In this document: piece after piece, positions 38,064 through 64,000 of the stretch
Layout of the letters: each line of letters starts with the position of its first letter
How positions within the stretch are numbered: the stretch's first letter is position 1
Source: an uncultured Salinisphaerales bacterium
Lineage (GTDB): Bacteria > Pseudomonadota > Gammaproteobacteria > Nevskiales > CAJXLF01
DNA: 64,000 nucleotides
Assembly (NCBI GenBank): GCA_913055805.1
Contig: CAJXLF010000012.1
Span: 35,034-99,033 of the forward strand
Direction: 5' to 3'
Made by a program: the position numbers and the translations under genes
Notes under the pieces: generated by a model
What the model saw: the letters and a program-made list of their open reading frames with translations, nothing else
Told to the model about the DNA's origin: nothing
Database searches by the model: none

Positions 38064-38082
38064 TGTCTCCTCCTGCAATGGC

Positions 38083-41428: not shown

Positions 41429-42244
41429 ATGATTCTGTTTCCCGAATTTCATGACCGCTATGGCCCCTGGGCCGTGGTGGCCGGCGCCTCGGAAGGTATC
41501 GGCCAGGCGTATACCCATATTCTGGCCGAACGTGGCATCAATGTGGTGACGCTGGCGCGCCGCATCGAGCCGCTGGAAAAAGACGCCGAACTCATTCGCC
41601 GCCGTCACCGCGTCGAGGTCAAACCGGTTTCCATGGATCTGGCCGCCCCTGACCTGGCAGAGCAGTTCAGTGCTGCCATCGACGGGCTCGACGTGGGCCT
41701 GTGCATATACAACGCCTGCTACTCCGCCATTGGCGAATTCAAGGACACCGCGCTGGATCAATACCAGAAAACCCTGGATGTAAACTGCCGCGGCCCGGTG
41801 ACGCTGGCCAATGTCATGACACCCCGGCTGGTCGAGCGCGGCAAGGGCGGGTTGATCATCATGTCCAGCATGGCCGGTTTTCAGGGTTCGGCCATGGTCG
41901 GTGTCTATGCCGCCACCAAGGCCTTCGACACCATCCTGGCCGAAAGCCTGTGGGCCGAACTGCAGCCGCTGGGCATAGACGTTCTTGGCTGCATTGCCGG
42001 TGCCACCGAAACCCCCGACTTCCTGCGCAAGACACCGGCCGACAAGAAAGACAAGGCTTTCCCAATGCGGCCCGAAGCGGTCGCCCGCGAAGGCATCGAA
42101 CACCTCGGCAAGGGCCCGCTGCATATCTGCGGCCGCATGAACCGCAGCGTGAATGCCGTCACCCGAATCATGAGTCACAAGCAGCGCACCAAATTCTTCA
42201 GTGGCGCCACCCGTGACATTTACGAATCTGCAACGGAGGCATGA
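41429..42244 (+). CDS. SDR (17beta-HSD-like subgroup)
   Basis: YGPWAVVAGASEGIG, YNA, SSMAG, YAATK. Confidence 0.85.
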   Translation: MILFPEFHDRYGPWAVVAGASEGIGQAYTHILAERGINVVTLARRIEPLEKDAELIRRRHRVEVKPVSMDLAAPDLAEQFSAAIDGLDVGLCIYNACYSAIGEFKDTALDQYQKTLDVNCRGPVTLANVMTPRLVERGKGGLIIMSSMAGFQGSAMVGVYAATKAFDTILAESLWAELQPLGIDVLGCIAGATETPDFLRKTPADKKDKAFPMRPEAVAREGIEHLGKGPLHICGRMNRSVNAVTRIMSHKQRTKFFSGATRDIYESATEA

Positions 42245-46437: not shown

Positions 46438-46450
46438 AGCGGCTTTCCAA

Positions 46451-46483
46451 AAAACAAAAAGCCCTTCGATTGAAGGGCTTTTT
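46451..46483. terminator. Bidirectional terminator, left copy of a 33-bp direct repeat
   Basis: aaaacaaaaagcccttcgattgaagggcttttt, identical to 51859-51891. Confidence 0.9.
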
Positions 46484-46827
46484 GCTTGCTTTGGCAGTAT
46501 CTAACACTTGCACATTAAGCGCCGTTAAATACTAACCCACAGCTGCCCTATCGGCAGTAGCAGGTTTTCGTGCGAACGAAGCCTTCGCCTTCCTGAGCAA
46601 AAGTCTACCCGAGAACAACAGAACCGCTCTAAGATTCCCTAGTACGAAAAAATTACGTGCCGACATATCTTGGACCGCATATAAAACATCACAACCACGC
46701 CAACAGTACCTCGAACCCTACTTGTAACGAGCGATCACCACGTTGCTCACAGCCGAGCAGAGACTGTTGAAGGCCACCGCTTATGCGTATTGACGAAACC
46801 GTGATCCCTGGAAACGTGACATTGTAA

Positions 46828-46904
46828 GAGTAGAACGAAGTTCTACTCGGCAAATCATTATTATCGAGTATTTACTCGATTGTTTATTAGTTATCGAGTA
46901 AATA
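46828..46904. promoter_or_regulatory. Array of (C)GAGTA/TACTC(G) inverted repeats, probable operators of the LexA-like repressor
   Basis: gagtagaac-gaa-gttctactc (46828-46848); atcgagta-tt-tactcgat (46863-46880); tatttactcgat-N12-atcgagtaaata (46869-46904). Confidence 0.65.
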
Positions 46905-46921
46905 TATTATAGTATGCAGTT

Positions 46922-47500
46922 ATGAGAAATAGAGATACGGCCTACCTCAATCTATTGCGAGACTATTACGCCAAGCACGGCGTTTTCCCGTCGTTCTCGG
47001 GCATCGCCACGCTGGTTGGCTTGAACACAACTTCAGCGGTGTCGGCCATGGTGGGAAGACTCAAAGAAGCCGGGTTTGTGGCTTCTACATCTGACAAGCG
47101 CCTGCAGCCTGGCTCTCGCTTCTTCGAGCGCAATCAGGTGGATATGGCGGTGCGAGCTGGCATACCTGAGGGTGCACAGGACGTTTCAAGTGATCCAGTT
47201 GTAATCGATCGATTGTTGATTGACGAACCATCCAGGACAGTGCTTATACCGGTCAAGGGTGAATCTATGCGCGACGCCGGCCTATTGGACGGCGATACCG
47301 TCGTAGTCAAACGCGGCGCTCCCACAAAGACAGGCGACATCGTGGTGGCCATGGTTGATGGCGAATTCACCGTGAAGTATCTTGCAAACGACGGTACGAA
47401 TTACTACCTGAAGCCTGGCAATGAATTGTTTGACGACATTCGCCCTAGCAAAGAGCTGGAACTTTTTGGGCGAGTAACCGGCTGTGTCAGGAAGTACTGA
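46922..47500 (+). CDS. LexA-like repressor (wHTH + S24 autopeptidase)
   Basis: FPSFSGIA..VGL..TSAV HTH; Ala-Gly site VRAG; catalytic Ser in GESM and Lys in FTVK. Confidence 0.9.
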   Translation: MRNRDTAYLNLLRDYYAKHGVFPSFSGIATLVGLNTTSAVSAMVGRLKEAGFVASTSDKRLQPGSRFFERNQVDMAVRAGIPEGAQDVSSDPVVIDRLLIDEPSRTVLIPVKGESMRDAGLLDGDTVVVKRGAPTKTGDIVVAMVDGEFTVKYLANDGTNYYLKPGNELFDDIRPSKELELFGRVTGCVRKY

Positions 47501-47664
47501 ATGATAACTGTACCCCTTGCATTCGAGTGTCGCTTCGCGCCGAAGTTAGGCGAGGGCAACATCCGCACATTTACAGTGAACACCCGTAACCAAAGGGTCA
47601 AGGGGCTAGGAGACATGGGTTATTTTCGGGATAACATCCGCATCTGCAAAGCAGGACTGAGCAC

Positions 47665-50610: not shown

Positions 50611-50626
50611 CATCGAGGCGGCCACC

Positions 50627-51727
50627 GTGTTCTACAATCAGCCTCTTTCTGTTCGCTTCGGCACCGAACTGCTACGACACGTCGACCACGCATCCAGCAT
50701 TGAGCCGTACTGGGATCAACTGGACATAGCGGTTGCCTGGGTACGTGCATCAGGTGTCAATTACCTTGAAACCAGCCTGCGCAAGTTCCTTAGGCATGGT
50801 GGACGTCTATCTATTATCGTCGGGATCGACCTACAAAACACGACGCGGGATGGGCTTCAGGCATTGCTGAATCTAGAGGGGCACGGCACATGCGAAACGT
50901 TTGTGTACCATAACGAAGCCGGAAGTATTTTCCATCCAAAGCTATATTTATTCCGTAATGAAGAAGAAGCCCGACTGATTGTCGGCTCTAACAATCTTAC
51001 CGCTGCGGGACTATATTCAAATGTCGAGGCAGGATTGCAGGTAGATACCGAATTAACAGCCGATTTAATTGCAGAAGCAAGTGATGCTCTGGCCGCTTGG
51101 AAAGACGCGGCGGAAGGCATGGCGGTCCGCCTAGACGCTGCGTTTCTGACTGATCTAGTGGCAGAGGGATACGTCTCAGACGAGAGGGCCACCCGCAATG
51201 CAGAGAAAAAGCGCCGCGCTTCGCGAAGTTCGCGCAGCGGTCGCCGCTTATTCGGCTCAAGATCATTCAACCCTCCGGCTAGGCCTTCGAGTGTGCACAC
51301 CCCCTCTGCATCGCCCACAGCCACTATACCTGCCGCCACACCCGTTCCTACGGGTACTACAATCCTAATGAGGTTGCGCTCGGCCCGTGGCACGCAAGTT
51401 CAAATACCCTTCCGGGTAGCATCGACCTTCTTCACCGGAATCAACCAAGTTATCAGCGCCCAAAATGGCAACGTTCACGGGTTGAACATTGCTAAAGCAA
51501 GAGGTAAACCGAATACAACAAAGCTTGAGATTCCAGAGCTGCTCGGTTTTAGCGATGTCTTCGCCAGATTCGAGAAGACTCCTGCGGGTGTGGTCTACGA
51601 AGTTTACGATGCCGGTACGGCACAAGGAAACCAAATTGAAGCGAGCCTCAAGAATGGCATGGCTAACGGTGAAACCCAGCAAAGTATCAAGGATACTTCC
51701 AGAGCAACCTGGTGGCGAGAGATATAG
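50627..51727 (+). CDS. PLD-family (HxK) nuclease, BfiI/NgoFVII-like, with a C-terminal putative DNA-binding domain
   Basis: IAVAWVRASG, IIVGID, FHPKLYLF, IVGSNNLT..GL..NVE; P/S/T-rich linker then a ~120-aa domain. Confidence 0.8.
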   Translation: MFYNQPLSVRFGTELLRHVDHASSIEPYWDQLDIAVAWVRASGVNYLETSLRKFLRHGGRLSIIVGIDLQNTTRDGLQALLNLEGHGTCETFVYHNEAGSIFHPKLYLFRNEEEARLIVGSNNLTAAGLYSNVEAGLQVDTELTADLIAEASDALAAWKDAAEGMAVRLDAAFLTDLVAEGYVSDERATRNAEKKRRASRSSRSGRRLFGSRSFNPPARPSSVHTPSASPTATIPAATPVPTGTTILMRLRSARGTQVQIPFRVASTFFTGINQVISAQNGNVHGLNIAKARGKPNTTKLEIPELLGFSDVFARFEKTPAGVVYEVYDAGTAQGNQIEASLKNGMANGETQQSIKDTSRATWWREI

Positions 51728-51858
51728 AACGCCGCTTACCCGCACAATTGATACCCTTTGAAATCACCACGGTCTAGACTAGCGCATCTACCAAAGTGAC
51801 AGCAGTGGAACAATTTTTATGACGGCACTAATGTGCAACTGCTTAATAATTTCATCTC

Positions 51859-51891
51859 AAAACAAAAAGCCCTTCGATTGAAGGGCTTTTT
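51859..51891. terminator. Bidirectional terminator, right copy of the 33-bp direct repeat
   Basis: aaaacaaaaagcccttcgattgaagggcttttt. Confidence 0.9.
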
Positions 51892-51909
51892 TATGGTCTC
51901 AAGATATTG

Positions 51910-52848
51910 TCAGGCGCTGGTACGCAACCGCGAACGGAAGCCACGAATGCGGTCCAGCAATCCCTCGGTTGCCTTGTTGGCCACCGGCTCCCTGGATTCC
52001 GCCACTTCGTAACGCTTGGTCAGCTGCGGCGCATGGGAAAGCCGCTGATGCTGACGCACGGCTGATTTGATGGCGATACGCGCCTGGCTGTCGTGCAGCG
52101 GCTTGCTGATCATGCGGAAGATCTGGCCCTGGTTGATCAGTTCGATGGCCGAATGGGCATCGGTGCGTTCGGTCAGAATCACACTCACCAGTTCAGGCTT
52201 GTGCAGCTTCAGCTTGCCGAGCAGGCTGGTCACAGGTGTGGACTGTACCCGGGTTTCGGAAATCACGACCGCGACATCGTCTGACTCCAGCTGATCCACA
52301 GCCGCAGCCAATGTGGTCGCGCCGCTGACCTGGAATTCCGGACCCAGGATATCCTGAATCTTGGCCGCCATGCCGGCATCGTCGTCCATCACCAGAATGC
52401 GGGTCGCATGCCCTGCCGGCTTAGCAGCCTCAAGGGTCTCTTCGGGCAGGGGTTCAATACTGGCGCTGATCTTGGCGGCATCCACCGCCAGCGCCACACA
52501 CTGCAGCAGTTCCTCGTTGTCCCAGGGCTTGTTCACGAAGCGGAAAATTTCGCCGTCGTTGATAGACCCGACGATGGAAGTCAGGTCGGAGTAGCCGGTC
52601 AACAGGATACGCATGATGTTTTCGTTTACACCGCGCACGGCGCGCAACAGCTCCACGCCGGTCATGGCGGGCATGCGCTGGTCACTGACAATCACATCAA
52701 CCGGTTGCTCACGCACGATTTGCAGGGCTTCGCTGCCACTGTTGGCAAAGTGGGTCTTGTAACGCCCGCGAAACAGCATGCGCATGGTGGCCAATATGCC
52801 CGGATCGTCATCGACGAACAGAACGCTGGCTTGGCTGGTATCGCTCAT
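51910..52848 (-). CDS. Tandem-receiver response regulator (REC + degenerate REC)
   Basis: FVDDD, VIVSDQRMP, LTG, KPW; second domain VMDDD, VVISETRV, KP. Confidence 0.85.
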   Translation of the reverse strand: MSDTSQASVLFVDDDPGILATMRMLFRGRYKTHFANSGSEALQIVREQPVDVIVSDQRMPAMTGVELLRAVRGVNENIMRILLTGYSDLTSIVGSINDGEIFRFVNKPWDNEELLQCVALAVDAAKISASIEPLPEETLEAAKPAGHATRILVMDDDAGMAAKIQDILGPEFQVSGATTLAAAVDQLESDDVAVVISETRVQSTPVTSLLGKLKLHKPELVSVILTERTDAHSAIELINQGQIFRMISKPLHDSQARIAIKSAVRQHQRLSHAPQLTKRYEVAESREPVANKATEGLLDRIRGFRSRLRTSA

Positions 52849-52875
52849 CTAATGTTTCCCCTTTGTCCTTTCGGG

Positions 52876-54696
52876 TCAGGCGGTAGCCGCTGCCAGTGCT
52901 TCGGTGGCTATCGGCTCCATGCCGTCCTCGGATTCCGGCTGCTTCGATGGCAGCCAGATTATGAATTCACTGCCGACCCCCGGCGTCGACTTGGCCGTAA
53001 TGCGGCCATGATGGTCCTGAATGATCTTGTAACTGATCGACAGGCCCAGGCCGGTACCGCCGCCCACATCCTTGGTGGTAAAGAAGGGGTCGAAGATCTG
53101 CTCGAGCACTTCCGGCGTCATACCGCTGCCATTGTCGATGACGCGGATACCCACGCCGTTGTTCAGGGCATTGGTATGAATGGTGATACGCCCGTCCGGC
53201 TTGTCGCCAATGGCCTGGGCGGCGTTGGTCACCAGATTCAGCAGCACCTGGTTGATCTGCGAAGGTGAACACTCGATTTCCGGCAACCGGTCCAGCTTCT
53301 TGACCACCTCGATGCCCTTCTTGAGGTGGTTGGTGGCCAGCTTGAGCGTGGACTCCACACCCTGGTTGAGATCGAACAGGTCCGTACGCGTACGGTCGAC
53401 GCGCGAGAAGTCCTTGAGACTCTGCACCAGCTCGCCGATATGCGTCAGACCGAACTCGGAGTGATTCAGCAGGTTATCCAGCTCGTCCGCCAGCTCCAGC
53501 GACTGGATCTGGTCTTCGACCCTGGCGGCGTTTTCCAGTGCCTCGGCAATTTGCTGGTCGGTAGCATCAGGCGAACCCAGCAGCTCTATGGCCTGCTTCT
53601 GCGCCTCGCAGACACCGCGGATATCGCGGATGGCGCCGCGAATAATGCTGGAATTACTGCGGGCATAGCCCAGTGGCGTATTAATTTCATGCGCCACACC
53701 CGCCACCATCTGGCCCAGCGAGGCCATTTTTTCCGACTGGATCAGCTGGGCCTGGGATTCCTTCAGGTTCTTCAAGGCCTGGCTCAAATCGGCCGTGCGT
53801 TCCTTCACCTGTTCTTCCAGGGTTTCGTTGGCGCGGTCCAGATCGCGGAAACTCTTGGCCAGGCGCAAACCCAGCAAGGCCAGCATCAGCAGCAGAATCG
53901 CGGTATAGGCCGCCAGCCAGATACGATACTGGTTGGCCACCGCCACACGGGATTCGTGGTAGTCGTTATAGGCCTCTTCCACACCCTGCAGGCTGGTGAC
54001 CGTGGGAATGGTCAGGAAGTCATTCAGCAGATTGACCAGGTCGGTCTTGTCCACGATCACGTCGTTCACGGCACCGCGCAGGCGCTTGGACGCATCCTGG
54101 AATTCCGTACCGAAGTTACCCTCGATTTCCTCCAGCTCCTTGGAGCGCTGCTCCACCGCGCCGGTCACAATGTCCGACGGCCGTGGTGAAATCGCATAGG
54201 TGGTGATGGCGTACTGCAGACTGCGCAGAATCTGATGCAGCGCCTGATCATCGGAGAGTTTTTCCAGCTTGCCGATGTAGAATGGCACCGAGTCTACGCT
54301 TCGGATCATGCGCTCCATGCCGCGCGAGGTCTGTGACTCGAAGTCCCAGGCCAGACCGAACTTGTCACCGATCTTTTCCTGGAACTGGTCAAGCGCGGCG
54401 TCCACGCCCGGCGACAGGCCACGGAAGGCCAGGCGGCCTTCTTCCAGCGCGTCCAGCTTGTCACCCACTTCGGCGGTCAGCTCGGTACGGGTTTTCCGCG
54501 AGGCGACCAAAGCCGAGGTGGTTTCCAGCACCACTGCACGGTCGAGGCGGTCATCGAGGTTGCCGATCTGCTGTAGCAAACCCAGGCGCTCCATGTGCAG
54601 ATCGATATCCACGGTCTGCGTACCGCGCACCAGGAATAGCAGTATCGCGATAGCCGTACCGGCGATCGCGCCTATGAATAGCATTCTCAGTCGCAT
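52876..54696 (-). CDS. Membrane sensor histidine kinase (periplasmic helical sensor, NtrB-type core)
   Basis: Two TM helices; [22 protein letters not shown]; NLVTNA; DNGSG; FDPFFTTK; GTGLGL. Confidence 0.9.
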
Positions 54697-54911
54697 CTCT
54701 CCCCCTGTCTCCCGCCCCCATGAATACGGGGTTCGCCCGCAGGCCCCCTTTATGAGCAGTAACGCAAGATAATGCGCGCGCCCCGGCATGCAAACATCAT
54801 CCTTGCGGATTAGTTTTACTCGCTTGTCCGGCGGCTGTCAGCCAAACGGGTGATTCGCGGTTAACCGGATTACGCTGAACTGGGTTTATTGAAAGGAAAA
54901 CGGGTGAATCC

Positions 54912-55694
54912 ATGACCCTGTCCGAACTCGGCTCGATCCAGCAGGTCCTGCTGATTTTTATACTGGTGCTGGGTGCACTGACCTTTGTCGGCACCCTGAT
55001 CAAGACCAACACCTATGGCCGGCATATGCAGGGCAATGAAAAACTCACCCTGCCCGCGCTGCCTGCCTGGCTAATATTTGAATGCCCGCAGTGGTGGGCC
55101 TTTGCGGTCACGTTCTGGGGCCTGGCGCTGGTACATGACCTCTCGCCTTCGTTGCCGGCCATCCTGCTGTTCGCACTGTGGCAATCACACTACCTATATC
55201 GCTCGCTCGTCTACCCGCTACGCATGCAGGACCGCGCCAAGCGTTTTCCACTCGCCGGTGTTGTTTTCGGATTCGGCTTTAACGCCATCAATGGTTTTGT
55301 AAACGGCTTTGCGGTACTGACTGCCAGCCACCTGATGGACAGCGCCTGGCTGAGCGACCCGCGTTTCGTTGCAGGCCTGGTCATCGCCGTCAGCGGCTGG
55401 TGGATCAACTTCCAGGCCGACGGCATCCTGATCAACCTGCGCAGTGACGGCAGTACGGGCTACAAGATTCCGTTCGGCGGCATGTTCCGTTATGTCTCCA
55501 GCGCCAATTATCTTGGGGAAATCGTACTCTGGTGCGGCTGGGCCCTGATGGCCTTCACGCCAGCCGGCCTCATCTTCGCCCTGTTTACCATCTCCAACCT
55601 GCTACCCAGAGCACTTTCGCATCATCGCTGGTATCTGCAAAAATTCCCGGACTACCCGGCGGACCGCAAGGCCATCATTCCAAAACTGCTATAG
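54912..55694 (+). CDS. SRD5A-type steroid 5alpha-reductase
   Basis: YGRH, AWLIFECP, HYLYR, INFQADGILINLR, YKIPFGGMF.YVSSANYLGE, HHRWY..KFPDYP.DRKAIIP. Confidence 0.85.
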   Translation: MTLSELGSIQQVLLIFILVLGALTFVGTLIKTNTYGRHMQGNEKLTLPALPAWLIFECPQWWAFAVTFWGLALVHDLSPSLPAILLFALWQSHYLYRSLVYPLRMQDRAKRFPLAGVVFGFGFNAINGFVNGFAVLTASHLMDSAWLSDPRFVAGLVIAVSGWWINFQADGILINLRSDGSTGYKIPFGGMFRYVSSANYLGEIVLWCGWALMAFTPAGLIFALFTISNLLPRALSHHRWYLQKFPDYPADRKAIIPKLL

Positions 55695-55714: not shown

Positions 55715-56209
55715 ATGAGGGATTCACTGGAAGACCGCATCGCCAGGCTGGAAGCCATAGAAGCCATCCGCGCCCTGAAGGCCCGTTACCTGGCCGCCTG
55801 CGACGCCAAGGACCCGGAAGCCGTGCGCGCCTGTTTCGCCGACGGCCCGGTGCATATCGACTATGGCGCCATCGGCACATTCGATAATGCCGACGACCTG
55901 GTGAAGATCTATACCGACATCGCCTGCCACCCGCATATGCTGGAAATGCACCACGGCAGCAATCCCCGTATTGAGCTGACCGACTCGCACACTGCCGAAG
56001 GCGCCTGGTCGATGCAGTATCAGCTGATCAACAGCAATGACATGACCCTGACCCAGATCGGCGGCGTATATCTGGATGAATACCGATTGATAGAAGGCGA
56101 ATGGAAAATCACCTCGACGCATTTCAGCGCCGAATCCACGCTGGCCGTTGAGCTGGGTGAGGCCGCGCTGAAGAAGATGTTTGCAGGCCGGCGCATGCCG
56201 ATGCCCTAG
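55715..56209 (+). CDS. NTF2/SnoaL-family protein (BaiE/LinA-like dehydratase)
   Basis: EAIRALKARYLAACDAKD, MHHGSNPRIE, YLDEY...GEWKI; RBS aaggag. Confidence 0.8.
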   Translation: MRDSLEDRIARLEAIEAIRALKARYLAACDAKDPEAVRACFADGPVHIDYGAIGTFDNADDLVKIYTDIACHPHMLEMHHGSNPRIELTDSHTAEGAWSMQYQLINSNDMTLTQIGGVYLDEYRLIEGEWKITSTHFSAESTLAVELGEAALKKMFAGRRMPMP

Positions 56210-56973
56210 GCGCCAGCGCCCACCTGGCGAATCTTGTCAATGGTGGCGGCATTCAGTGCCCCACCATCTTCGGCCATCATGCTTGCCGCCACTTGCGGGC
56301 GGCAGAACTGGCGCACGAAATCGGCAAGTACCCGCATCACCACGTCATCATGTGCTTCCTGCATGCCGTCGGACACCCAGTTGGCCAGCCGCGTCTGTTG
56401 CTGGGCCATTAACAGCTTGGACTGATCCGCCGGCACGCCGGGCACGAACAGGCCCTGATTTGTACCCCAGTTGAAGACCTGTTCCATCATCGCCAGCCCG
56501 CGCTCCCACAGCTGTTGCTCGTCGGAACTGGGGCGTGCCGCACTGTGATACCAGGCATAGCCCTGCTGCAGCTGGATACGCAGATAATCCGGATGCTCAA
56601 GCAGATACAGGACATGGGCCTGCATCATCCACAGAATCTGCTCCACCGATTCCAGTCCCTGCAGCACCTGGGCACGTCCCAGAGCGCTATTCATCATTTC
56701 GTTGTCACGCACGATCAACAGGCCGCGATACAACTCCAGCTTGCCGGGGTAGGACTGGTACAGCGTGCCCAGTGAAATGCCTGCCGCCGAGGCAATGTCC
56801 TTCATCTTGGTGTTTTCGTAGCCCTGCTCGGCAAAGATGCTCTCGGCCACATCCAGGATGTGCTCGCGGTAGAGGGCATCCTTGGCAGCACGCAGATCAC
56901 GCGACTGCGGACGGCGTCCCCGCGAGGGTTTGAGTGCTTTATCAGAGGCTTTTCTGGACTGACTCGTTGACAT
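56206..56973 (-). CDS. TetR-family regulator, divergent from the GMC operon
   Basis: ILDVAESIFAEQGY..TKMKDIASAAGISLGTLYQSYPGK. Confidence 0.9.
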   Translation of the reverse strand: MSTSQSRKASDKALKPSRGRRPQSRDLRAAKDALYREHILDVAESIFAEQGYENTKMKDIASAAGISLGTLYQSYPGKLELYRGLLIVRDNEMMNSALGRAQVLQGLESVEQILWMMQAHVLYLLEHPDYLRIQLQQGYAWYHSAARPSSDEQQLWERGLAMMEQVFNWGTNQGLFVPGVPADQSKLLMAQQQTRLANWVSDGMQEAHDDVVMRVLADFVRQFCRPQVAASMMAEDGGALNAATIDKIRQVGAGA

Positions 56974-57118
56974 CTTTGCAATCTACCTTTCTAATATAGT
57001 AATTGCAATTTCTAATTAAGTAACTAAGATTATACAAAGTCGGAATACGACTGGACATGGCCCTGCGCCATGGGTGCAAAGGAATCGACGAAAGGAACTT
57101 AGGAGAGAAGCGAACGCC

Positions 57119-58717
57119 ATGCCGGCCAACAGCTTTGACTACGTGGTGATTGGAGCAGGCTCTTCGGGCTGTGTGGCTGCCGCACGCCTGGCCGAAGCCG
57201 GTTCCGTGCTGCTGCTGGAAGCGGGCGAGCCTGCCGCGAACCACCCGGAAACGCTCTCTGCCGACGGCTTCAAGGATGCCTTCGCCAACGACGCGTTGAT
57301 GTGGCAACGCATGAGCATCCCACAGGCGGATTGCGGCAAACGCCGCCTTTACCTGGGCAGCGGCCGCGGCATGGGCGGCAGCGGCGCCGTCAATGGCATG
57401 GTCTATACCCGCGGCGACCGCAGGGACTTCCGTCACTGGCCCGCTGGCTGGCAATGGGACGACTTGCAGCCCGCTTTCGAATCCGTCGAGCGGCAACTCG
57501 GCATCCGGCACCGCGAAAGCACCCCGTTTGCGGAACGTTTTATCCAGGCCGCCACCCAGGCCGGCTTGGATCGCAAGGACGGCATGAACGACGGCAACCT
57601 GCTGGGCGTGGTGGGCTGCAATGACATGAACTATTCGGGTGATGCCCGGCGCAGTTCCTATGCCGCCTGGCTGCATGACCAACAACCTGAAAACCTGACG
57701 ATCATTACCGGCGCGCAGGTACGCCGCCTGGTATTTGACGATGCCCGCAACGCCAGCGCCGTCATTTACAGAAAGGACGGACAGATACACCGTGCCGATA
57801 TTGGCCACGAAGTCCTGCTTTGTGCCGGCGCGCTGGAAACGCCCAAACTGCTGATGCTGTCCGGCATCGGGCCACAGGCGCACCTGCAGTCTCTGGGTAT
57901 CAATGTGGTGCTGGACGCGCCCGGCGTCGGCCAGCATCTGCAGGATCACCCCAACGTCTGCATGTTCTACCGTGCGGCGCAGCCAGTGGATTTCCGTTAC
58001 CCGCAGGTCTATGGCTTTGACGCCGCGGCGCGCCAACCCGGCGAACCGGCAGACGCGCCAGACACCTGCTTTGTCTGCTACGCAGCGCCGGCATCGATCA
58101 AGCACTCCATGCTGCGCATGCTGCCGATCCTGGCGCTGCCTGGCCGCTTGCATGACCTGCGCCCTTTGCGCCAGGCACTGCGCGGCCTCATTCATCTGGC
58201 CTTTGCCCTGCCACCCCTCAAGCGATTTGTGTCCCGCGTGTTCGGCATCGTCGTCATCCTGGGCAAACCCACGGCCCGCGGCAGCATCCGCCTGGCCTCC
58301 AGCGACCCGTCGGCACCGACTCTGATCGACCCGGCTTATTACGCCACCGAACAGGATCGCCGCACCATGGAAGCCGGCATAGCCAAGGCCCGCCGCATTG
58401 CAGCGCAGCCGCCGCTGGCCGAAGCCAGACCCCTGTCACCGGGCGCAAGAGATGTGAGCGCTAAAAAACTCTGGCAATGGATTCGTGCCGCCACCATGAC
58501 CACCTTCCATTTCTGCGGCTCCTGCCGCATGGGCACAGATGCTGACAGCCCGGTGGACACCCGGCTGCGCGTCAAGGGACTGGGCAATGTACGCGTGGCC
58601 GACGCCTCGGTGATGCCGGAAATCCCGGTCTCCGCCCTGAACGCCCCGAGCATGATGATCGGCTACCGTGCGGCCGACTTCGTGCTGGCCACCCAATCCA
58701 GGAGAGAAGCGGCGTGA
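57119..58717 (+). CDS. GMC-family FAD oxidoreductase
   Basis: IGAGSSG, GGSGAVNGMVYTRG, LMLSGIG, GQHLQDH, FHFCGSCRMG, VADASVMP, LNAP. Confidence 0.9.
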   Translation: MPANSFDYVVIGAGSSGCVAAARLAEAGSVLLLEAGEPAANHPETLSADGFKDAFANDALMWQRMSIPQADCGKRRLYLGSGRGMGGSGAVNGMVYTRGDRRDFRHWPAGWQWDDLQPAFESVERQLGIRHRESTPFAERFIQAATQAGLDRKDGMNDGNLLGVVGCNDMNYSGDARRSSYAAWLHDQQPENLTIITGAQVRRLVFDDARNASAVIYRKDGQIHRADIGHEVLLCAGALETPKLLMLSGIGPQAHLQSLGINVVLDAPGVGQHLQDHPNVCMFYRAAQPVDFRYPQVYGFDAAARQPGEPADAPDTCFVCYAAPASIKHSMLRMLPILALPGRLHDLRPLRQALRGLIHLAFALPPLKRFVSRVFGIVVILGKPTARGSIRLASSDPSAPTLIDPAYYATEQDRRTMEAGIAKARRIAAQPPLAEARPLSPGARDVSAKKLWQWIRAATMTTFHFCGSCRMGTDADSPVDTRLRVKGLGNVRVADASVMPEIPVSALNAPSMMIGYRAADFVLATQSRREAA

Positions 58718-60333
58718 GCTCTGTTCAACCTCTGACCACACCGGCATCAGCCAACGTCATTGAATGCATTAATCCGGCGACCGGGGAAAAGCTGGGCAGC
58801 TTGCCCGCCGCCAGCCCGGCGCAGGTACAGGCGGCGGTGGAGCGCGCCCGCATTGCCCAGCAGAGCTGGGCACGGAGCAGTTTCAGACAACGCCGCGCCG
58901 TATTGCAGCACATGCTGGACCACATGCTCGAACATGCCGACGAACTGGTGGCCGAGATCGTGCAGGACAGCGGCAAGACCCATGAAAACGCGCTGCTCGG
59001 CGAGATCATGCCGGTGTGCAACAAGATCCGCTGGATGATCAAGAATGCCGAGAAGCACCTGAAGCCCGAGAAAGTGCCATCCGGCATCCTCATGCACAAG
59101 AAAGGCCGCATTGAATACCGGCCGCTGGGGGTAGTGGCCTGCATCGTGCCCTGGAATTATCCCTTCCAGAATATCTTCGGCTCTCTCGTCGCCCCGTTGA
59201 TGGCCGGCAATGCGGTCATCCTCAAGACTTCCGAAGCGGTGGCCTGGTCCACACAGCGTTTCCAGAAAGTGATCGACCAGGCGCTGGAAAAAGAAGGCTT
59301 CTCCACCGACACCGTGCAGATTATCAACGGCTTCGGCGACACCGGCGCGGCCCTGGTGCGCAGCCGCGTACAGAAAATCCTCTTTATCGGCTCGGTCGGC
59401 AATGGCCGCCGCATTATCGAAGGCAGCGCCGAACACCTCACCCCGGTGGTGATGGAACTGGGCGGCAAGGACCCGATGATCATCTGCGAGGACGCCAACC
59501 TGGAGCAGGCCCTGCATTCGGCACTGGGCGGCTGCTTCATCAACCTCGGCCAGAACTGCATTGCCTCCGAACGCCTCATCGTGCTGGACGGCATCTACGA
59601 CCGCTTTGTCACCGCCATGCACGAGATGGCCGGCCAACTACGGCAAGGCGTGCCGCAGGAACCCGGCGCTCTGGATACCGGCGCACTGACCAGCCCCTTG
59701 CAGGTCAAGGTGGTGGATGAACTGGTGCGTGACGCCCTGGCCAACGGCGCCCGCGCGCTGGTCGGCGGCCGGTTACCGCAAGGTCCCGGCAACTTCTACC
59801 CACCTACGGTGCTGGTCGATGTCACCCCGGACATGCGCATCGCCAACGAAGAAGTATTTGGCCCGGTGATGCTGATCATGCGGGTGAAAGACGATGCCGA
59901 AGCCGTGCGGCTGGCCAATGCTACCGACTTCGGTCTGCAGTCCTCGGTGTTCAGCAACAATCGCCCGCGGGCGGAACGCATTGCCGCCCAGCTGGAAGCC
60001 GGCGCCACCGTGATCAACGATTTCGGCCTCTGTTACCTGAACCAGAACCTGCCCTTCGGCGGCGTGAAGTATTCGGGTTTCGGGCGCATGAATGGCCGCG
60101 ACGGCCTGCGCGCCTATACCAACGCCAAGGCCGTGCTCACCGACCGTTTTCCGATTTCCATTCCCCCCAAACTGTATCCGGTCAAACCGGGCGACTACGC
60201 CAGGGCTCGCAGCAGCATAAGGCTGATGTTTGCCCGCCGCTGGCGCGACAAGTTCAAGGCGCTAATCAGTCTCCTTGGAAAAAAACCCTCCCCCTTGGGG
60301 GGGGAGGGTAAGGGAGGGGGTGAGGATGAATAG
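58714..60333 (+). CDS. Aldehyde dehydrogenase
   Basis: PWNYP, FIGS, ELGGKDP, GQNC, EEVFGP, PFGGVKYSGFGR. Confidence 0.95.
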   Translation: MSSVQPLTTPASANVIECINPATGEKLGSLPAASPAQVQAAVERARIAQQSWARSSFRQRRAVLQHMLDHMLEHADELVAEIVQDSGKTHENALLGEIMPVCNKIRWMIKNAEKHLKPEKVPSGILMHKKGRIEYRPLGVVACIVPWNYPFQNIFGSLVAPLMAGNAVILKTSEAVAWSTQRFQKVIDQALEKEGFSTDTVQIINGFGDTGAALVRSRVQKILFIGSVGNGRRIIEGSAEHLTPVVMELGGKDPMIICEDANLEQALHSALGGCFINLGQNCIASERLIVLDGIYDRFVTAMHEMAGQLRQGVPQEPGALDTGALTSPLQVKVVDELVRDALANGARALVGGRLPQGPGNFYPPTVLVDVTPDMRIANEEVFGPVMLIMRVKDDAEAVRLANATDFGLQSSVFSNNRPRAERIAAQLEAGATVINDFGLCYLNQNLPFGGVKYSGFGRMNGRDGLRAYTNAKAVLTDRFPISIPPKLYPVKPGDYARARSSIRLMFARRWRDKFKALISLLGKKPSPLGGEGKGGGEDE

Positions 60334-60410
60334 TCTCTTCCCCCTCTCCCCAACCCTCTCCCACCAGGGGAGAGGGAAAAGAAAACCCGCCTTCTCCCGT
60401 CAGGGAGGAG
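60286..60410. repeat. Family A repeats, partly within the ALDH 3' end
   Basis: ccctcccccttggggggggaggg; cccctctccccaaccctctcccaccaggggagaggg. Confidence 0.8.
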
Positions 60411-60438
60411 AGCACTTTCCCGCCTGGAGGCAGGAATC

Positions 60439-61113
60439 ATGAATACGACGTTCTTTATCTGCCTGGCAGCCATCATGCTTTATGACGGCATGTTGATGAC
60501 CTGGCTGTCCTGGGCGGCGACCTCTTCCCGTCTGAAGCAATACCGCATCCGCACGCCCAAGACCTATCAACTGCCGCCGCTGCGCAAACGCCTCAATGTC
60601 ACGTTGAATAACCTGATGTCGCTGGGTCTGTTTCTGGCTTTCCTGTTTTTCTTTGGCGACAGCGCCCTCTACCCGGGCTGGCCGGGCGCGGCGCATCTGC
60701 TGGGTGAATCCCTGGCGGTACTGCTGCTCTATGATTTTCTTTATTACTTCTACCACCGTGGCATGCATCACCGCCTGGTGTTGAAGTATGTACACAGGGT
60801 GCATCACATGGTGCGCTTCCCCACGGCCAACGAAAGCGTCTTTCTGCATCCGCTTGAGGCAGTGGGCGCCATCTTCCTGCTGTGCGGTTCCATCCTGCTG
60901 TTTGGCCCCATCAGCACCTGGTCGTTCCTGGTGGTGTTCTTCGTGTATTCCACGGTGAACATCCTGGTTCACAGCAACCTGGAATTACCGCATCCGGCGT
61001 TCCGGCTACTGAATTTCTGGGCCCGGGCGCATGACGTGCATCACAAGGAACTCAAGTACAACTATTCCTCGATTTTCCCGTTCTGGGATCAGGCCTTCGG
61101 CACTTTCAAATAA
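60439..61113 (+). CDS. Sterol desaturase / fatty-acid hydroxylase superfamily (ERG25/ERG3-type di-iron enzyme)
   Basis: His boxes HRGMH, HRVHH, HSN, HDVHH; HPLE; NYSSIFPFWDQAFGT. Confidence 0.9.
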   Translation: MNTTFFICLAAIMLYDGMLMTWLSWAATSSRLKQYRIRTPKTYQLPPLRKRLNVTLNNLMSLGLFLAFLFFFGDSALYPGWPGAAHLLGESLAVLLLYDFLYYFYHRGMHHRLVLKYVHRVHHMVRFPTANESVFLHPLEAVGAIFLLCGSILLFGPISTWSFLVVFFVYSTVNILVHSNLELPHPAFRLLNFWARAHDVHHKELKYNYSSIFPFWDQAFGTFK

Positions 61114-61127
61114 ACGAGCGAGACAAC

Positions 61128-62138
61128 ATGAGTAGGAAAATTCTCATCACCGGCGGCCAGGGTTTCGTGGGCCGCGCCCTGGTGGACCGGTTCGCCGACC
61201 TCGGCTTTCAGGTCACATGTGTAGACATGATCGACCAGCCGTTCCGCGAGGACGTGAAATTCCTCAAACTGGACATTCGCGATGCCGCCGCCGTGAAAGC
61301 AGCCTGTGCCGGCATGGACAGCATCATTCACAACGCATCACTGGTGCACACCAAGCACAACCGTGAAGAAGATGTCTGGGCCGTCAACCTGGGCGGCACG
61401 GAAAACATTCTGGCTGCCTGCGAAGCGCACAACATTCCCCGGCTGGTTTACATCAGCTCAGCCAGCGCCGTGTATGAAGGTCAGGACATCGAAAACGGCG
61501 ACGAGAACCTGCCCTATTCCAGTATTTCGCAAGCGCCCTATGCCGACAGCAAGATCGCAGCCGAGAAAAAGGCCCTGGCCTTCAGCGGCACCGGCGCCAC
61601 CCGGACCTGCGCCATCCGCCCGCATGTGGTTTTTGGCGCGGGCGACCGGCGCTTCATTCCCGCCATTCTGGAAAAGGCCAAGGCCGGCAAACTCAAGCGT
61701 GCGGTAGGCAACCGCGACAAGCTTTCCGATTTCACCTATATCGACAATCTGGTCGATGCGGTGGTGGCCGTCGAAGCACAGCTGACGCCGGGCTCGGCCG
61801 TTTGCGGCCAGGCCTACTTCATTACCAATGGCGAGCCCATGGCCTTCTTTGATTTCATCGAAAAAATGCTGGTGCAGATGGGTTACCCGCCCATTACCGG
61901 CAAGGTGCCCTACTGGCTGGCCTATTCAGTGGCCGCCATCGCCGAGGCCATCGACACGCTCAAGGGCGGCACCCTCAATGCCGAAGACGGGCTGACCCGC
62001 TTCGCCGTGCGTTACATGGTGACACACCACTACTTCAATATAGACAAGGCCCGCCGTGACTTCGGCTGGCAGCCGAAGATTTCACTGGATGAAGGCATTC
62101 GCCTCACGGCAGAGCAGATCGCGGTTGGAGAAACCTGA
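61128..62138 (+). CDS. NSDHL/ERG26-like 3beta-HSD (sterol-4alpha-carboxylate dehydrogenase/decarboxylase family)
   Basis: TGGQGFVG, SSASAVYEGQDIENGDENLPY, YADSK, IRPHVVFG, DFTYIDN, GQAYFITNGEP, VPYWLAY. Confidence 0.8.
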   Translation: MSRKILITGGQGFVGRALVDRFADLGFQVTCVDMIDQPFREDVKFLKLDIRDAAAVKAACAGMDSIIHNASLVHTKHNREEDVWAVNLGGTENILAACEAHNIPRLVYISSASAVYEGQDIENGDENLPYSSISQAPYADSKIAAEKKALAFSGTGATRTCAIRPHVVFGAGDRRFIPAILEKAKAGKLKRAVGNRDKLSDFTYIDNLVDAVVAVEAQLTPGSAVCGQAYFITNGEPMAFFDFIEKMLVQMGYPPITGKVPYWLAYSVAAIAEAIDTLKGGTLNAEDGLTRFAVRYMVTHHYFNIDKARRDFGWQPKISLDEGIRLTAEQIAVGET

Positions 62139-62194
62139 TCGTTAAAACGATAACCGCAGGGACATAACAAGATTCAGCGGCAAGGGAGGAGAAC

Positions 62195-64000
62195 ATGAGC
62201 ACAATGCGTGCGGGAATGCGGCAAGGCCTGCTGGTGGCCGTGCTGGGCATGGTCAGTCTGCCGTTGATGGCCGAGGAGTACGACTTCTACGGCATTGCCA
62301 CCAAGGTCACACTGACCGGCAACTACGCTGCTGCCTGGCGTCTGGAAAAACCCAGCAACCGCATTATCGATGCGCCGGGTGACCCCGAACTGCCGGTGGC
62401 CGAAGACCTGAAGTATCCGCAGTCCAACAACTTCGACGACGGCGACCGCAACTTCGAACAGTACGACATGGTCAACAACCGCGTATCGCTCATTGGCGAC
62501 ATCGAATTCTCCTGGCGCGACTACGGCATGCTCATCCGCGCTGACAGTTTCTACGACGATGTCTACGCCAACAATGCCGACAACACCCATGACGCGCCCG
62601 ACCGCATCAACACCACGCAACAGCCCTTCAATAGCTTCACCGACGACATTGACAAATACAGCGGCCAGCGAACCCGCCTGCTGGACGCCTACGTCTACGG
62701 CAATTTCTATTTCGGTGACACCATGGCCCTGAACGTACGCCTGGGCCGGCACATCTCCGCCTGGGGCCAGAGCCTGTTCTTCAACGGCGTCGCCCTGTCG
62801 CAGTCCACCGCCGATTCCACCCGCGCCACCATTCCCGGCGTGGACGTGAAGAGTATTCTGTTGCCCACCAACCAGTTGTCGCTGCGTTTCACGCTCACCG
62901 AGGACATCGTGCTGCTGGGCCAGTACCAGTTCGAGTTCGAACCCTTCCTGGTCAACCCGGTGGGCGAGTTTTACTCGGTGACTGACGTGGCCGGCCCCGG
63001 ACGCGAGTTCATCTACGGCTTCGTCAATCCGCTCAACCCTACCGAGCTGGCACGCTTCAACATCACCGACCTGAACGACATCGCCGACATCCTGTTGACC
63101 ATCGACCAGGTATTCGACAACCAGTTGCCCACCGAGCAACTGGAAGCCATCCTGCGCGGCCTGCCGCTGAACCTGCCACCGCTGTCTACACCCACCGAAG
63201 GCATCAATCCGTTGAATTCGCCCTCAGGTGTGAACCCGAGCTATATCGGTGACATCGAGCCCGATGACGACGACAAGCAATGGGGCCTGGGTATCCAGTA
63301 CCGGCTCACCGATGTCACCGAACTGGGCGCCTATTACCTCAAGTACCACCAGAAAACACCGGCGGTACAGACCAATCCGGGCGAACTGGTACTGATTCCG
63401 GAACAGGAACTGCTGCCCGGCGTCAGCCTGCCCGCCATCACCACCGGCACCCTGGGACTGACCGTGCCGGCCACTTACAACATCCGCTACTTCGACAATG
63501 TCGACCTCTATGCCCTCAGCCTGTCCACCCTGCTGTTTGGCTGGAATGTCGGTGCCGAGGTAATCCGGCGCGAAGGCGCGGACGTGATGGTGGATGTGGA
63601 TCAGGGCGTGAATGGGCCCGTACCCACGCCGACCCGCGCCAACACCAACCAGGTGCTCGTTAATGCCATTTACACCTTCCGGCCCTCGCGCTGGCTGGAA
63701 AGCATCATCCTGGTGGGAGAGGTCGGCTGGATCGAGACGAAAGACCAGGAACCGCAGTTCAGTTACGAGGGCGCCCATGCCGGCCAGCCCTTCGACGAAC
63801 TCACCTTCGACGAGGAAGCCTGGGCCTTCTCGATGCTGACTATCCTGGAGAAGCGCAACATCTTCTCCGGCTGGGACCTGAGCGTACCGATTTCCTTCCA
63901 GCGCGCACTAGAAGGCCGCGCAGCTCTGGCCGGCGCCTTCGGTTCGCTGTTCAACGAAGGCGATACACGTATCGGCGTCGGCTTCAATTTCACCCGTCTG
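62195..64000 (+). CDS. DUF1302 outer-membrane protein; 3' end runs off the window
   Basis: Not in the ORF track. RBS gggagg; signal peptide; NFDDGDRNF, LLDAYVY, RLGRH..AWGQSLF, PGVDVKSILLP, QWGL. Confidence 0.85.
   Translation, partial: MSTMRAGMRQGLLVAVLGMVSLPLMAEEYDFYGIATKVTLTGNYAAAWRLEKPSNRIIDAPGDPELPVAEDLKYPQSNNFDDGDRNFEQYDMVNNRVSLIGDIEFSWRDYGMLIRADSFYDDVYANNADNTHDAPDRINTTQQPFNSFTDDIDKYSGQRTRLLDAYVYGNFYFGDTMALNVRLGRHISAWGQSLFFNGVALSQSTADSTRATIPGVDVKSILLPTNQLSLRFTLTEDIVLLGQYQFEFEPFLVNPVGEFYSVTDVAGPGREFIYGFVNPLNPTELARFNITDLNDIADILLTIDQVFDNQLPTEQLEAILRGLPLNLPPLSTPTEGINPLNSPSGVNPSYIGDIEPDDDDKQWGLGIQYRLTDVTELGAYYLKYHQKTPAVQTNPGELVLIPEQELLPGVSLPAITTGTLGLTVPATYNIRYFDNVDLYALSLSTLLFGWNVGAEVIRREGADVMVDVDQGVNGPVPTPTRANTNQVLVNAIYTFRPSRWLESIILVGEVGWIETKDQEPQFSYEGAHAGQPFDELTFDEEAWAFSMLTILEKRNIFSGWDLSVPISFQRALEGRAALAGAFGSLFNEGDTRIGVGFNFTRL

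Follow-up and report, generated by a model that had tools for sequence, protein, structure and literature searches.

At the downstream end of a 64,000-nucleotide stretch of DNA from an uncultured Salinisphaerales bacterium (contig CAJXLF010000012.1, positions 35,034 to 99,033; hereafter the window), we examined an operon in which genes for a GMC flavoprotein oxidoreductase (GMC), an aldehyde dehydrogenase (ALDH), a membrane di-iron enzyme of the FA_hydroxylase superfamily (FAH) and an extended short-chain dehydrogenase/reductase of the 3beta-HSD family (SDR) follow one another on the plus strand. We refer to these four genes as the cassette. As set out below, the cassette is a conserved arrangement found in steroid-degrading bacteria, and we lean, without great conviction, towards the reading that it removes the C-4 methyl groups of exogenous 4-methyl and 4,4-dimethyl sterols (lanosterol- or cycloartenol-type precursors and 4-methylsterols) for catabolism. 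The genes and sequence features of the locus are as follows.

56206-56973, minus strand: TetR-family regulator, 255 aa, divergently transcribed (Pfam TetR_N, 51.3 bits)
56974-57073, no strand: AT-rich divergent intergenic stretch, presumed from its sequence to hold the promoter and the TetR operator
56980-57031: imperfect palindrome in the TetR/GMC intergenic region (inverted repeat of 29 nt, 72% complementary)
57074-58717, plus strand: GMC flavoprotein oxidoreductase, 547 aa (GMC_oxred_N, PF00732, 150 bits; GMC_oxred_C, PF05199, 116 bits)
58714-60333, plus strand: NAD(P)-dependent ALDH, 539 aa (Pfam Aldedh, PF00171, 451.5 bits, residues 12-474)
60336-60382, plus strand: C-rich/G-rich hairpin in the ALDH-FAH spacer (inverted repeat, 16-nt arms, 88% complementary)
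60439-61113, plus strand: FAH, a membrane di-iron His-box enzyme of the FA_hydroxylase superfamily, 224 aa (PF04116, 87.9 bits)
61128-62138, plus strand: 3beta-HSD-family extended SDR, 336 aa (Pfam 3Beta_HSD, PF01073, 189.2 bits)
62195 to 120 nt past the window end, plus strand: DUF1302 protein, 641 aa at full length (PF06980, 367 bits for the part inside the window and 410 bits in full)

An earlier note on this DNA had listed a TetR gene, the GMC and ALDH genes, a His-box enzyme, a 3beta-HSD and a DUF1302 gene, and the open reading frame listing together with Pfam places all six where it had put them; the three peptides that it quoted from the SDR, SSASAVYEGQDIENGDENLPY, AIRPHVVFG and VPYWLAY, occur verbatim in the translation. 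Its description of the genes as tightly coupled holds for GMC and ALDH, whose stop and start overlap by 4 nt, for FAH and SDR (14-nt gap) and for SDR and DUF1302 (56-nt gap), but not for ALDH and FAH, which are separated by a hairpin-bearing spacer of 105 nt. The operon also runs beyond the limits that the earlier note had drawn, both upstream and past the end of the window. A promoter scan of the TetR/GMC divergent region returned no sigma-70 consensus match, and terminator-like sites in the same promoter and terminator scan occurred at chance level. A further C/G-rich hairpin, terminator-like on the minus strand, lies at the 3' end of the ALDH gene (60285-60309).

The gene arrangement is far from chance, since 46 of 50 related loci, spread over many genera, show this order too. 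One genome per GTDB species was scanned, which gave 205 confirmed FAH loci; 80 of these were kept, and the gene content of each locus was read by tblastn with the window proteins. Where FAH is at least 46% identical to the window protein, ALDH, FAH and SDR stand adjacent and in the same order at 46 of the 50 loci, with GMC also upstream at 33 of the 50 (six loci are too short upstream to judge). Taken singly, ALDH adjoins FAH at 46 of these loci (61-79% identity) and SDR adjoins it at 48 (63-81% identity); the four exceptions to the triad comprise two loci at a contig edge (L004, L013) and two in which FAH stands alone (L041, L046). Among loci with FAH identities of 34-45%, which are mostly from Myxococcota, the triad occurs at only 2 of 16 and GMC at 1 of 16. 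The set is present in at least 46 species-level genomes, whose record titles name Oceanococcus, Algiphilus, Fontimonas, Stenotrophobium, Stagnimonas, Zavarzinia, strain HdN1 and Ketobacter as well as Nevskiales, Moraxellaceae, Pseudomonadales, Cellvibrionales/Spongiibacteraceae and the BD1-7 clade. Isolates among the hosts include Stenotrophobium rhamnosiphilum GT1R17, Zavarzinia aquatilis, Z. marina and Fontimonas thermophila DSM 23609. A homologous divergent TetR gene was found at 17 loci.

Association with steroid degradation and with a ferredoxin-fused CYP51

The genome that contains the window (3.38 Mb, 95.7% complete) is that of a steroid degrader, carrying markers of both ring opening and ring degradation. 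Aerobic steroid ring-degradation genes occupy the window and the contig upstream of it, among them two KstD-like flavoproteins, IpdE2-like acyl-CoA dehydrogenases, DUF1329 and a second 3beta-HSD that lies beside the ring-degradation genes at 42241-43350. The best family for the HsaA-like protein is HsaA itself (378 bits, under the cut-off of 450); the KstD-like protein scores 597 bits and the HsaC-like dioxygenase 270 bits, and both a FadD3-family ligase (698 bits against a cut-off of 657) and an Ltp-like thiolase (707 bits against 424) exceed their cut-offs. The cassette lies about 15 kb from ring-degradation genes on this contig and directly adjacent to them at another locus (L048). No squalene or oxidosqualene cyclase domain was found in this 95.7% complete genome.

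The same combination characterizes cassette-bearing genomes in general. We detected an HsaA-like gene (E<=1e-82) in 41 of 42 cassette genomes, the single miss being G038, compared with 3 of 299 other genomes (E<=1e-70) in an even sample of the class. A squalene/oxidosqualene cyclase domain was present in only 3 of the 42, while two myxobacterial controls were positive, so that the check suggested for this locus, conservation of the operon in steroid degraders lacking oxidosqualene cyclase, came out in favour of such conservation, with 39 of 42 genomes and the window's own genome free of cyclase. Within the order to which the window belongs (187 genomes), 102 genomes carry the HsaA-like gene, 25 the FAH orthologue and cassette and 10 the fused CYP51 described below, and these sets nest without exception: every one of the 25 genomes with FAH also has the HsaA-like gene, and FAH occurs in 0 of the 85 that lack it, although genomes of kin are not independent and Fisher values computed from these order counts overstate significance. 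At the genus level, 21 of 32 genera are HsaA-positive, and the 9 genera with FAH are all among them. This speaks against a biosynthetic role for the cassette, whose typical host is a steroid degrader without sterol production.

These associations bear on whether imported lanosterol-type sterols might instead be trimmed at C-14 and C-4 to serve the host's own membranes or signals, which we regard as very improbable. A divergent operon that is repressed by TetR and includes genes for uptake is a layout often seen in catabolic modules; moreover, the cassette is tied to a ring-cleaving HsaA-like gene in both samples and, here and at L048, is found near or next to ring-degradation genes. On the other side, the operon encodes an RND protein with a sterol-sensing domain, and the available text of Lee, Giner and Welander 2026 (PMC13277303) raises changes to exogenously acquired lanosterol as a role for CYP51 and 8,14-Bsr in bacteria that do not produce sterols.

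A second line of evidence comes from the neighbourhood of the cassette. By clustering the neighbours of 42 cassette loci and scanning the representatives, we found a P450-ferredoxin fusion of about 560 aa (hereafter CYP51fx) that stands beside the cassette at 15 of the 42 loci. In the PDB, the copy at locus L017 is closest to the fused Methylococcus capsulatus CYP51 (6mcw, 613 bits, residues 12-561 of 563); M. tuberculosis CYP51 follows with 424 bits and the remaining top matches are all sterol 14alpha-demethylases. CYP51fx thus belongs to the ferredoxin-fused CYP51 proteins, as does the copy in the window's own genome, which lies on contig C4, is 69-71% identical to the L017 protein and contains Pfam p450 and Fer4 domains. 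At three loci (L017, L021 from Stenotrophobium, and L038) CYP51fx is located downstream of the cassette on the same strand, directly after SDR in the first two, and at the other linked loci, including those of HdN1 and Ketobacter, it is transcribed divergently from the cassette TetR gene.

Genome-wide, CYP51fx is present in 27 of the 42 cassette genomes, compared with a CYP51-like match in 5 of the 299 genomes sampled from the class. A cyclase is encoded in four of these five, which look like sterol producers and lack an FAH orthologue (best match 54 bits); this indicates that the cassette goes with the non-producer type of CYP51. In the window's order, all 10 genomes with CYP51fx hold the cassette, and CYP51fx is found in none of the 162 genomes without it, 77 of which are HsaA-positive. 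More distantly, in a metagenome-assembled genome (MAG) of Myxococcales (L063), an FAH homologue (37% identical) adjoins a CYP51 homologue (43% identical). As a separate observation, a 1.7-Mb single-contig genome of the same class (G255) encodes an HsaA-like protein (375 bits) and, in tandem, a pair of FAH paralogues (133 and 114 bits), and it has no cyclase; its CYP51-like match, at 44% identity, reads through one TGA, as do the matches in G046, G047 and G102, and this TGA probably marks the end of a P450 gene that is followed by a distinct gene downstream.

The CYP51 link makes a role in demethylating the sterol nucleus much more likely. C-4 methyls block the 3-keto-4-ene entry intermediate, and since CYP51 substrates carry C-4 methyls, a degrader that removes the 14alpha-methyl must also clear those at C-4 before the 3-keto-4-ene/9,10-seco route can proceed. 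As far as the available texts of Lamb 2021 and Lee 2026 (PMC13277303) go, 14alpha-methylsterols are the only substrates of CYP51. Lee 2026 also refers to earlier reports that a Mycobacterium can convert lanosterol to a C19 steroid, which implies C-4 demethylation in that organism by genes without an assignment.

CYP51fx has companions of its own, namely an NTF2-like protein, one or two extended SDRs (SDR2 and SDR3) and a membrane protein of 265-280 aa (unk280). In the window's own genome, CYP51fx, SDR3, the NTF2-like gene and unk280 form an operon on contig C4 (43.5-47.8 kb), with DUF1329 ahead of it and a tannase-like DUF6351 gene after it. The portions of Lee, Giner and Welander 2026 (PMC13277303) available to us describe an NTF2-family 8,14-sterol reductase (8,14-Bsr) that acts after the fused CYP51, and place CYP51-Bsr pairs in gamma- and alphaproteobacteria and in Mycobacteriales. 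The NTF2-like protein co-localizes with the fused CYP51 in the same manner; Pfam SnoaL_2 matches one homologue weakly (25.6 bits, under the cut-off of 27), and a cyclase- and CYP51fx-bearing genome of the same class (G228) encodes a homologue 57% identical to that of the window genome, which is consistent with its being an 8,14-Bsr orthologue. The NTF2-like protein of this module is a probable 8,14-sterol reductase. Both extended SDRs fall under the cut-offs of the models that they resemble: SDR2 and SDR3 score 255 and 165 bits on the HpnA model, and on the SdmB model (cut-off 600) SDR2 of locus L018 reaches 179 bits and the SDR3 of the window genome 95 bits.

The membrane protein unk280 occurs near CYP51fx or the cassette at 15 loci; the copy in the window's genome is about 265 aa long, rich in Trp, Tyr and Phe, and encoded at C4:43486-44307 (L083 7487-8308, minus strand). 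It has no Pfam or NCBIfam match, and its AlphaFold2 (AF2) model (pLDDT 70.5) has no Foldseek match in the PDB at E<=0.001. One speculative role for it is that of a CPI1-like cyclopropyl-sterol isomerase. Directly downstream of the CYP51fx module lie the gene for the tannase-like DUF6351 protein (814 aa, 709 bits; L083 4959-7403, minus strand) and then those for an adh_short SDR and an alpha/beta hydrolase. The DUF6351 protein could be a steryl-ester hydrolase.

The ties to HsaA and CYP51fx are also what makes a pathway for non-steroid lipids extremely improbable, that is, one acting on alkanes, fatty alcohols, or ether or olefin/ketone lipids in which the SDR would be an OleD-like beta-keto-acid reductase. 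Such a pathway has some appeal, in that several hosts bear the names of hydrocarbon degraders in their record titles (HdN1, Ketobacter, Algiphilus, Fontimonas), the series hydroxylase-GMC-ALDH mirrors AlkB-AlkJ-AlkH, and among curated models the SDR scores highest on OleD (NCBIfam NF042422). The score on that model is 260 bits against a cut-off of 580, however, and both HdN1 and Ketobacter have an HsaA-like gene of their own (402 and 395 bits) as well as CYP51fx beside the cassette.

Enzyme families and a candidate route for C-4 demethylation

Membership of FAH in PF04116 is well above the cut-off of 31 bits. Its translation contains the His boxes HRGMHH, HRVHH and HDVHH, and nine histidines (H106, H110, H119, H122, H123, H178, H198, H201 and H202) are invariant across 20 orthologues. 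Besides ERG25, the FA_hydroxylase superfamily also includes ERG3 and CH25H (cholesterol 25-hydroxylase). A profile search of 1.84 billion proteins assigns FAH to a separate clade of bacterial proteins, of which 51 representatives match at E<=1e-30, and more than 200 close relatives were seen in a homologue search; for both FAH and SDR, the nearest relatives of the window proteins are from MAGs titled Nevskiales. The AF2 model of FAH has a pLDDT of 84. The SDR belongs to the 3beta-HSD family PF01073, for which the cut-off is 22 bits, and its best PDB match is human NSDHL (6jkg, 132 bits). In GMC both the N-terminal FAD domain and the C-terminal GMC domain of the family were matched. The best NCBIfam match of GMC is choline dehydrogenase at 324 bits, under the cut-off of 605, and ALDH reaches the cut-off of no NCBIfam equivalog; a choline/betaine pathway for the two was ruled out because both are far under equivalog cut-offs.

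We propose the following route. FAH would hydroxylate a C-4 methyl group (CH3 to CH2OH), the GMC flavoenzyme would oxidize the hydroxymethyl group to an aldehyde, and ALDH would convert this to the 4-carboxylate; the SDR would then oxidize C-3 to give a beta-keto acid, which would decarboxylate to the 3-ketosteroid. A second round would remove the other methyl group, possibly after reduction of the 3-keto group by the HpnA/SdmB-like SDR2 or SDR3, which are encoded beside CYP51fx or the cassette. The 14alpha-methyl would be handled by the separate module of CYP51-ferredoxin, the NTF2-like probable 8,14-sterol reductase, SDR3 and unk280, and the DUF1302, RND, LolA-like and DUF1329 proteins, the RND protein with its sterol-sensing domain, may import the sterol across the envelope. 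The families, gene order, conservation and genomic and phyletic associations were computed, and from here we infer the substrate, every chemical step and the catabolic purpose.

The operon continues past the window with these genes:

L001 9170-9985 (window numbering 64136-64951, beyond the end), plus strand: EBP/EXPERA-like membrane protein, 15 nt after DUF1302
L001 10024-12145 (window numbering 64990-67111, beyond the end), plus strand: S-(hydroxymethyl)glutathione dehydrogenase and S-formylglutathione hydrolase, after the EXPERA gene and ahead of that for the RND transporter

Further along this strand are encoded the RND/MMPL protein, which has a sterol-sensing domain, then a LolA-like and another DUF1302 protein, so that the DUF1302 gene at the window end would open a presumed set for uptake through the envelope; the series DUF1302-RND-LolA-DUF1302 also follows the cassette at two further loci (L008, L010). 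EBP is the family of the sterol delta8-delta7 isomerase. The EBP/EXPERA-like protein exceeds the PF05241 cut-off weakly (27.2 bits against 25.7), and its PDB match is human EBP (6oht, E=6.4e-4). It was rejected as a conserved partner, its homologues (65-70% identity) being present in 4 of 42 other cassette genomes, plus one fragment, with differing neighbours. In this genome, it and the SRD5A-like gene upstream nonetheless give the cassette neighbours from families that act on the steroid nucleus, which favours the C-4 reading. The two formaldehyde-detoxification enzymes are clear family members (614 bits against a cut-off of 544 and 425 against 282 on NCBIfam models), and they too were rejected as conserved partners, as no cassette locus gave a match at >=35% identity.

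A number of observations weigh against C-4 demethylation. As regards the hydroxylase, FAH has no match in the PDB by sequence; the best Foldseek hit of its model, Scs7p, is non-significant (E=1.7); homologue searches, by protein and with a profile of distant myxobacterial homologues, return only bacterial proteins under 'sterol desaturase family' names and none from eukaryotes; and the ESM Atlas places it at superfamily level only. Nor does the operon encode an electron donor for the di-iron enzyme. The SDR scores 40 bits on the SdmB model (NCBIfam NF052578, cut-off 600), its best curated model is the OleD model discussed above, also under cut-off, and automated JGI names of the SDR orthologues listed divide into about five 'sterol-4alpha-carboxylate 3-dehydrogenase', three 'OleD' and nine 'sugar epimerase'. 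At the level of the pathway, GMC is dispensable at some loci, being undetected at 13 of the 46 with the triad (six loci are too short upstream to judge), the cassette locus of the window genome does not encode a 3-ketoreductase, and the formaldehyde-detoxification pair in the operon is not accounted for by a route that releases CO2. Finally, CYP51fx was not found in 15 of the 42 cassette genomes, including an Algiphilus genome titled as a complete chromosome (G004) and an isolate of Fontimonas thermophila (G011), from which it follows that the cassette also works without C-14 demethylation, and the nesting of CYP51fx within cassette within HsaA is equally expected if the cassette serves any sterol, for instance at the side chain.

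The earlier note, which had proposed catabolic C-4 demethylation for this operon, had leaned on the resemblance of the SDR to NSDHL. The likeness is real, as the 6jkg match attests, but it is not specific, since the paralogous 3beta-HSD of the window at 42241-43350 scores 133 bits against the same chain, and we have dropped it as evidence. The placement of FAH is likewise a weaker support than the note had it. The prediction that the operon is kept in cyclase-free steroid degraders, on the other hand, was borne out, and the proposal as a whole is supported in part and gains considerably from the comparative genomics.

The side chain deserves closer attention. There, FAH would hydroxylate a terminal, possibly allylic, C-26/27 methyl group, GMC and ALDH would carry it to a C-26 acid for CoA activation and beta-oxidation, and the SDR would be a plain 3beta-HSD. 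A hydroxylase, a primary-alcohol oxidase and an ALDH fit a methyl-to-carboxyl route in the side chain equally well, the FAH superfamily includes cholesterol 25-hydroxylase, and the nesting described above would arise if all sterol degraders of this kind needed the cassette and some of them CYP51, as would the 15 cassette genomes in which CYP51fx was not found. In addition, six of the seven P450s of the genome were compared with the PDB and none of these six is a clear CYP125 or CYP142 orthologue. We nonetheless judge a side-chain role unlikely, though it is the strongest of the competing readings. When the three closest ORFs were tallied at each of 40 loci (108 ORFs in total), the families that recurred were TetR_N (23), Epimerase and 3Beta_HSD SDRs (11 and 10), P450 with ferredoxin (10), DUF1302 (4) and DUF1329 (3); no acyl-CoA ligase or beta-oxidation family is among the 25 families with most members listed, and because side-chain activation would need such genes, their absence counts in favour of C-4 demethylation. 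The near-invariant adjacency of the SDR (48 of 50 loci) is not called for by side-chain chemistry, given also that the genome already has the 3beta-HSD at 42241-43350 beside its ring-degradation genes. Side-chain oxidation could instead fall to a class I P450 on the same steroid contig (C12:6530-7909), which is moderately CYP125-like (157 bits to a reconstructed CYP125 ancestor, 123 bits to CYP142), and the cassette is present in only 25 of the 102 HsaA-positive genomes of the order.

Like chemistry might also take place elsewhere than at C-4 of a sterol: at another nuclear or angular sterol methyl, at the 4,4-dimethyl groups (C-23/24) or the C-28 methyls in hopanoids or in pentacyclic triterpenoids from plants, or by a retro-aldol loss of formaldehyde from a 3-keto-4-hydroxymethyl intermediate. 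We think this quite improbable as a group. The cassette genomes in which CYP51fx was not found are compatible with another position or substrate, as is the tannase-like DUF6351 gene after the CYP51fx module, and SDR2 and SDR3 score best, though under cut-off, on the hopanoid-associated HpnA model. Where CYP51 is linked to the cassette, the restriction of this enzyme to 14alpha-methylsterols, as far as the available texts of Lamb 2021 and Lee 2026 state it, points instead to tetracyclic sterols. For the retro-aldol variant, the formaldehyde pair in the window's operon hints at formaldehyde release, and it may be a sign of a retro-aldol side route or a chance insertion; the pair is not conserved at other cassette loci, and in the pure form of this variant GMC and ALDH would be superfluous.

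Other features around the locus

Upstream of the TetR gene lies a gene that we considered and rejected as a conserved partner of the cassette:

54912-55694, plus strand: Steroid_dh membrane protein (SRD5A-like, 3-oxo-5alpha-steroid 4-dehydrogenase family), 260 aa (PF02544, 156.6 bits)

It is probably a separate transcript, with a putative role, and homologues occur near the cassette at four loci (L003, L005, L006, L049). The genome holds several paralogous SRD5A-like/DUF1295 membrane reductases, at 54912-55694 and 37137-38177 in the window and at C12:25896-26684 and C1:491306-492076. Between the SRD5A-like gene and an island of low GC content, a two-component pair is encoded on the minus strand (51910-54789); its histidine kinase has a DAHL domain and its response regulator two receiver stretches. 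The island itself (46000-52000; GC 0.51 against about 0.60) separates the steroid genes from the cassette, contains genes for a 981-aa fused DNA methylase (47665-50610; N6_N4_Mtase, Eco57I) and a PLD-family nuclease (50627-51727), and looks like an inserted restriction-modification system. Four of the seven P450s of the genome most resemble eukaryote-type or class II forms (CYP120, CYP97-like, CYP3A/BM3-like) and not the usual class I P450s of bacteria; they are encoded at C3:243930-245273, C13:24147-25445, C5:36721-37932 and, in the window, 22323-23693.

Related systems and implications

The closest parallel to the proposed route is the eukaryotic complex of ERG25/SMO (MSMO1), ERG26/NSDHL, ERG27 and ERG28. 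Both draw on the His-box FA_hydroxylase and 3beta-HSD-family SDR superfamilies, and in both a methyl group would be taken to a carboxyl group that is lost upon 3-oxidation. In eukaryotes, ERG25 alone carries out all three oxidations, whereas the cassette has a dedicated and conserved GMC and ALDH and lacks equivalents of ERG27 and ERG28; its FAH is a protein of 224 aa in a separate bacterial clade, with a catabolic context in hosts without cyclase. The superfamily assignment of ERG25 and ERG26, and the presence of homologues of both in the myxobacterium Plesiocystis, follow the available text of Desmond & Gribaldo 2009. More speculatively, the bacterial FAH/SDR pair, which sterol-producing Myxococcota have as well, might be related to the forerunners of ERG25 and ERG26 in eukaryotes.

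Bacteria also have SdmA and SdmB (with SdmC) in methanotrophs, Enhygromyxa and Calothrix, which, as described in the accessible part of Lee et al. 2023 and in Lee et al. 2018 as cited, remove C-4 methyls by means of an oxygenase and extended-SDR reductases, and SDR2 and SDR3 weakly resemble SdmB. The Sdm oxygenase is a Rieske protein and its pathway is biosynthetic according to that source, whereas the cassette oxygenase is a His-box di-iron enzyme, its SDR falls far short on the SdmB model, and the cyclase-bearing CYP51 genomes of the class sample are devoid of FAH orthologues. The work on CYP51-ferredoxin and 8,14-Bsr (PMC13277303) matches the companion module, in which a fused CYP51-ferredoxin is followed by an NTF2-like protein; its available text names no C-4 demethylation genes in degraders and no GMC-ALDH-FAH-SDR cassette. 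In M. tuberculosis, another sterol degrader, rv0762c, rv0763c (ferredoxin), cyp51, rv0765c (oxidoreductase), cyp123, rv0767c and aldA are contiguous (PMC10198500, text available in part), a parallel inventory that would suit methyl-to-carboxyl oxidation: next to cyp51 stand another oxygenase, oxidoreductases and an aldehyde dehydrogenase, together with a gene of regulator size. There, the second oxygenase is the P450 cyp123 and not a His-box enzyme, and no GMC gene is listed in the available text.

In the alkane pathway, AlkB, AlkJ and AlkH, a membrane di-iron hydroxylase, a GMC-family alcohol dehydrogenase and an aldehyde dehydrogenase, convert CH3 to COOH, and the cassette repeats this division of labour among three enzymes. 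AlkB is desaturase-like rather than a PF04116 protein and has no 3beta-HSD partner, unlike the cassette, which also associates with steroid genes. Across the indexed open-access and bioRxiv full text (main texts only), we found the eukaryotic pathway, SdmAB(C) and the work on CYP51 and Bsr, but neither a catabolic gene set for C-4 demethylation nor this cassette, and no assignment of genes for the C-4 step in sterol degraders. The chemistry proposed here is known; what would be new is the enzyme assembly and its physiological role.

Tentatively, and as something that we hold to be less likely than not, we can extend this to a complete and modular pathway by which proteobacterial steroid degraders would trim the nucleus of 4,4,14-trimethyl sterols such as lanosterol and cycloartenol: CYP51-ferredoxin with an 8,14-Bsr-like reductase, a novel membrane protein of seven to eight helices (maybe a ring or cyclopropane isomerase), and a C-4 demethylase built from enzymes of the ERG25 and ERG26 superfamilies that outsources two oxidations to GMC and ALDH.

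Steroid catabolism is well mapped, with a gap at the degradation of sterols that carry C-4 and C-14 methyls, among them lanosterol, cycloartenol and its plant esters, dinoflagellate 4-methylsterols and methanotroph sterols. The cassette would fill this gap and give a reason why Proteobacteria that do not produce sterols keep CYP51. If C-4 demethylation is indeed its function, it would be a third, independently assembled bacterial solution to the removal of C-4 methyls and the first catabolic one, and its enzymes would be biocatalysts for 4-nor-steroid and meiosis-activating-sterol chemistry. It could also mean that 4-methyl and 4,4-dimethyl sterols, from which 4-methylsterane biomarkers derive, are selectively removed by heterotrophs in soils, in sediments and in the sea, which would bear on how the preservation of 4-methylsterane and dinosterane biomarkers is read.

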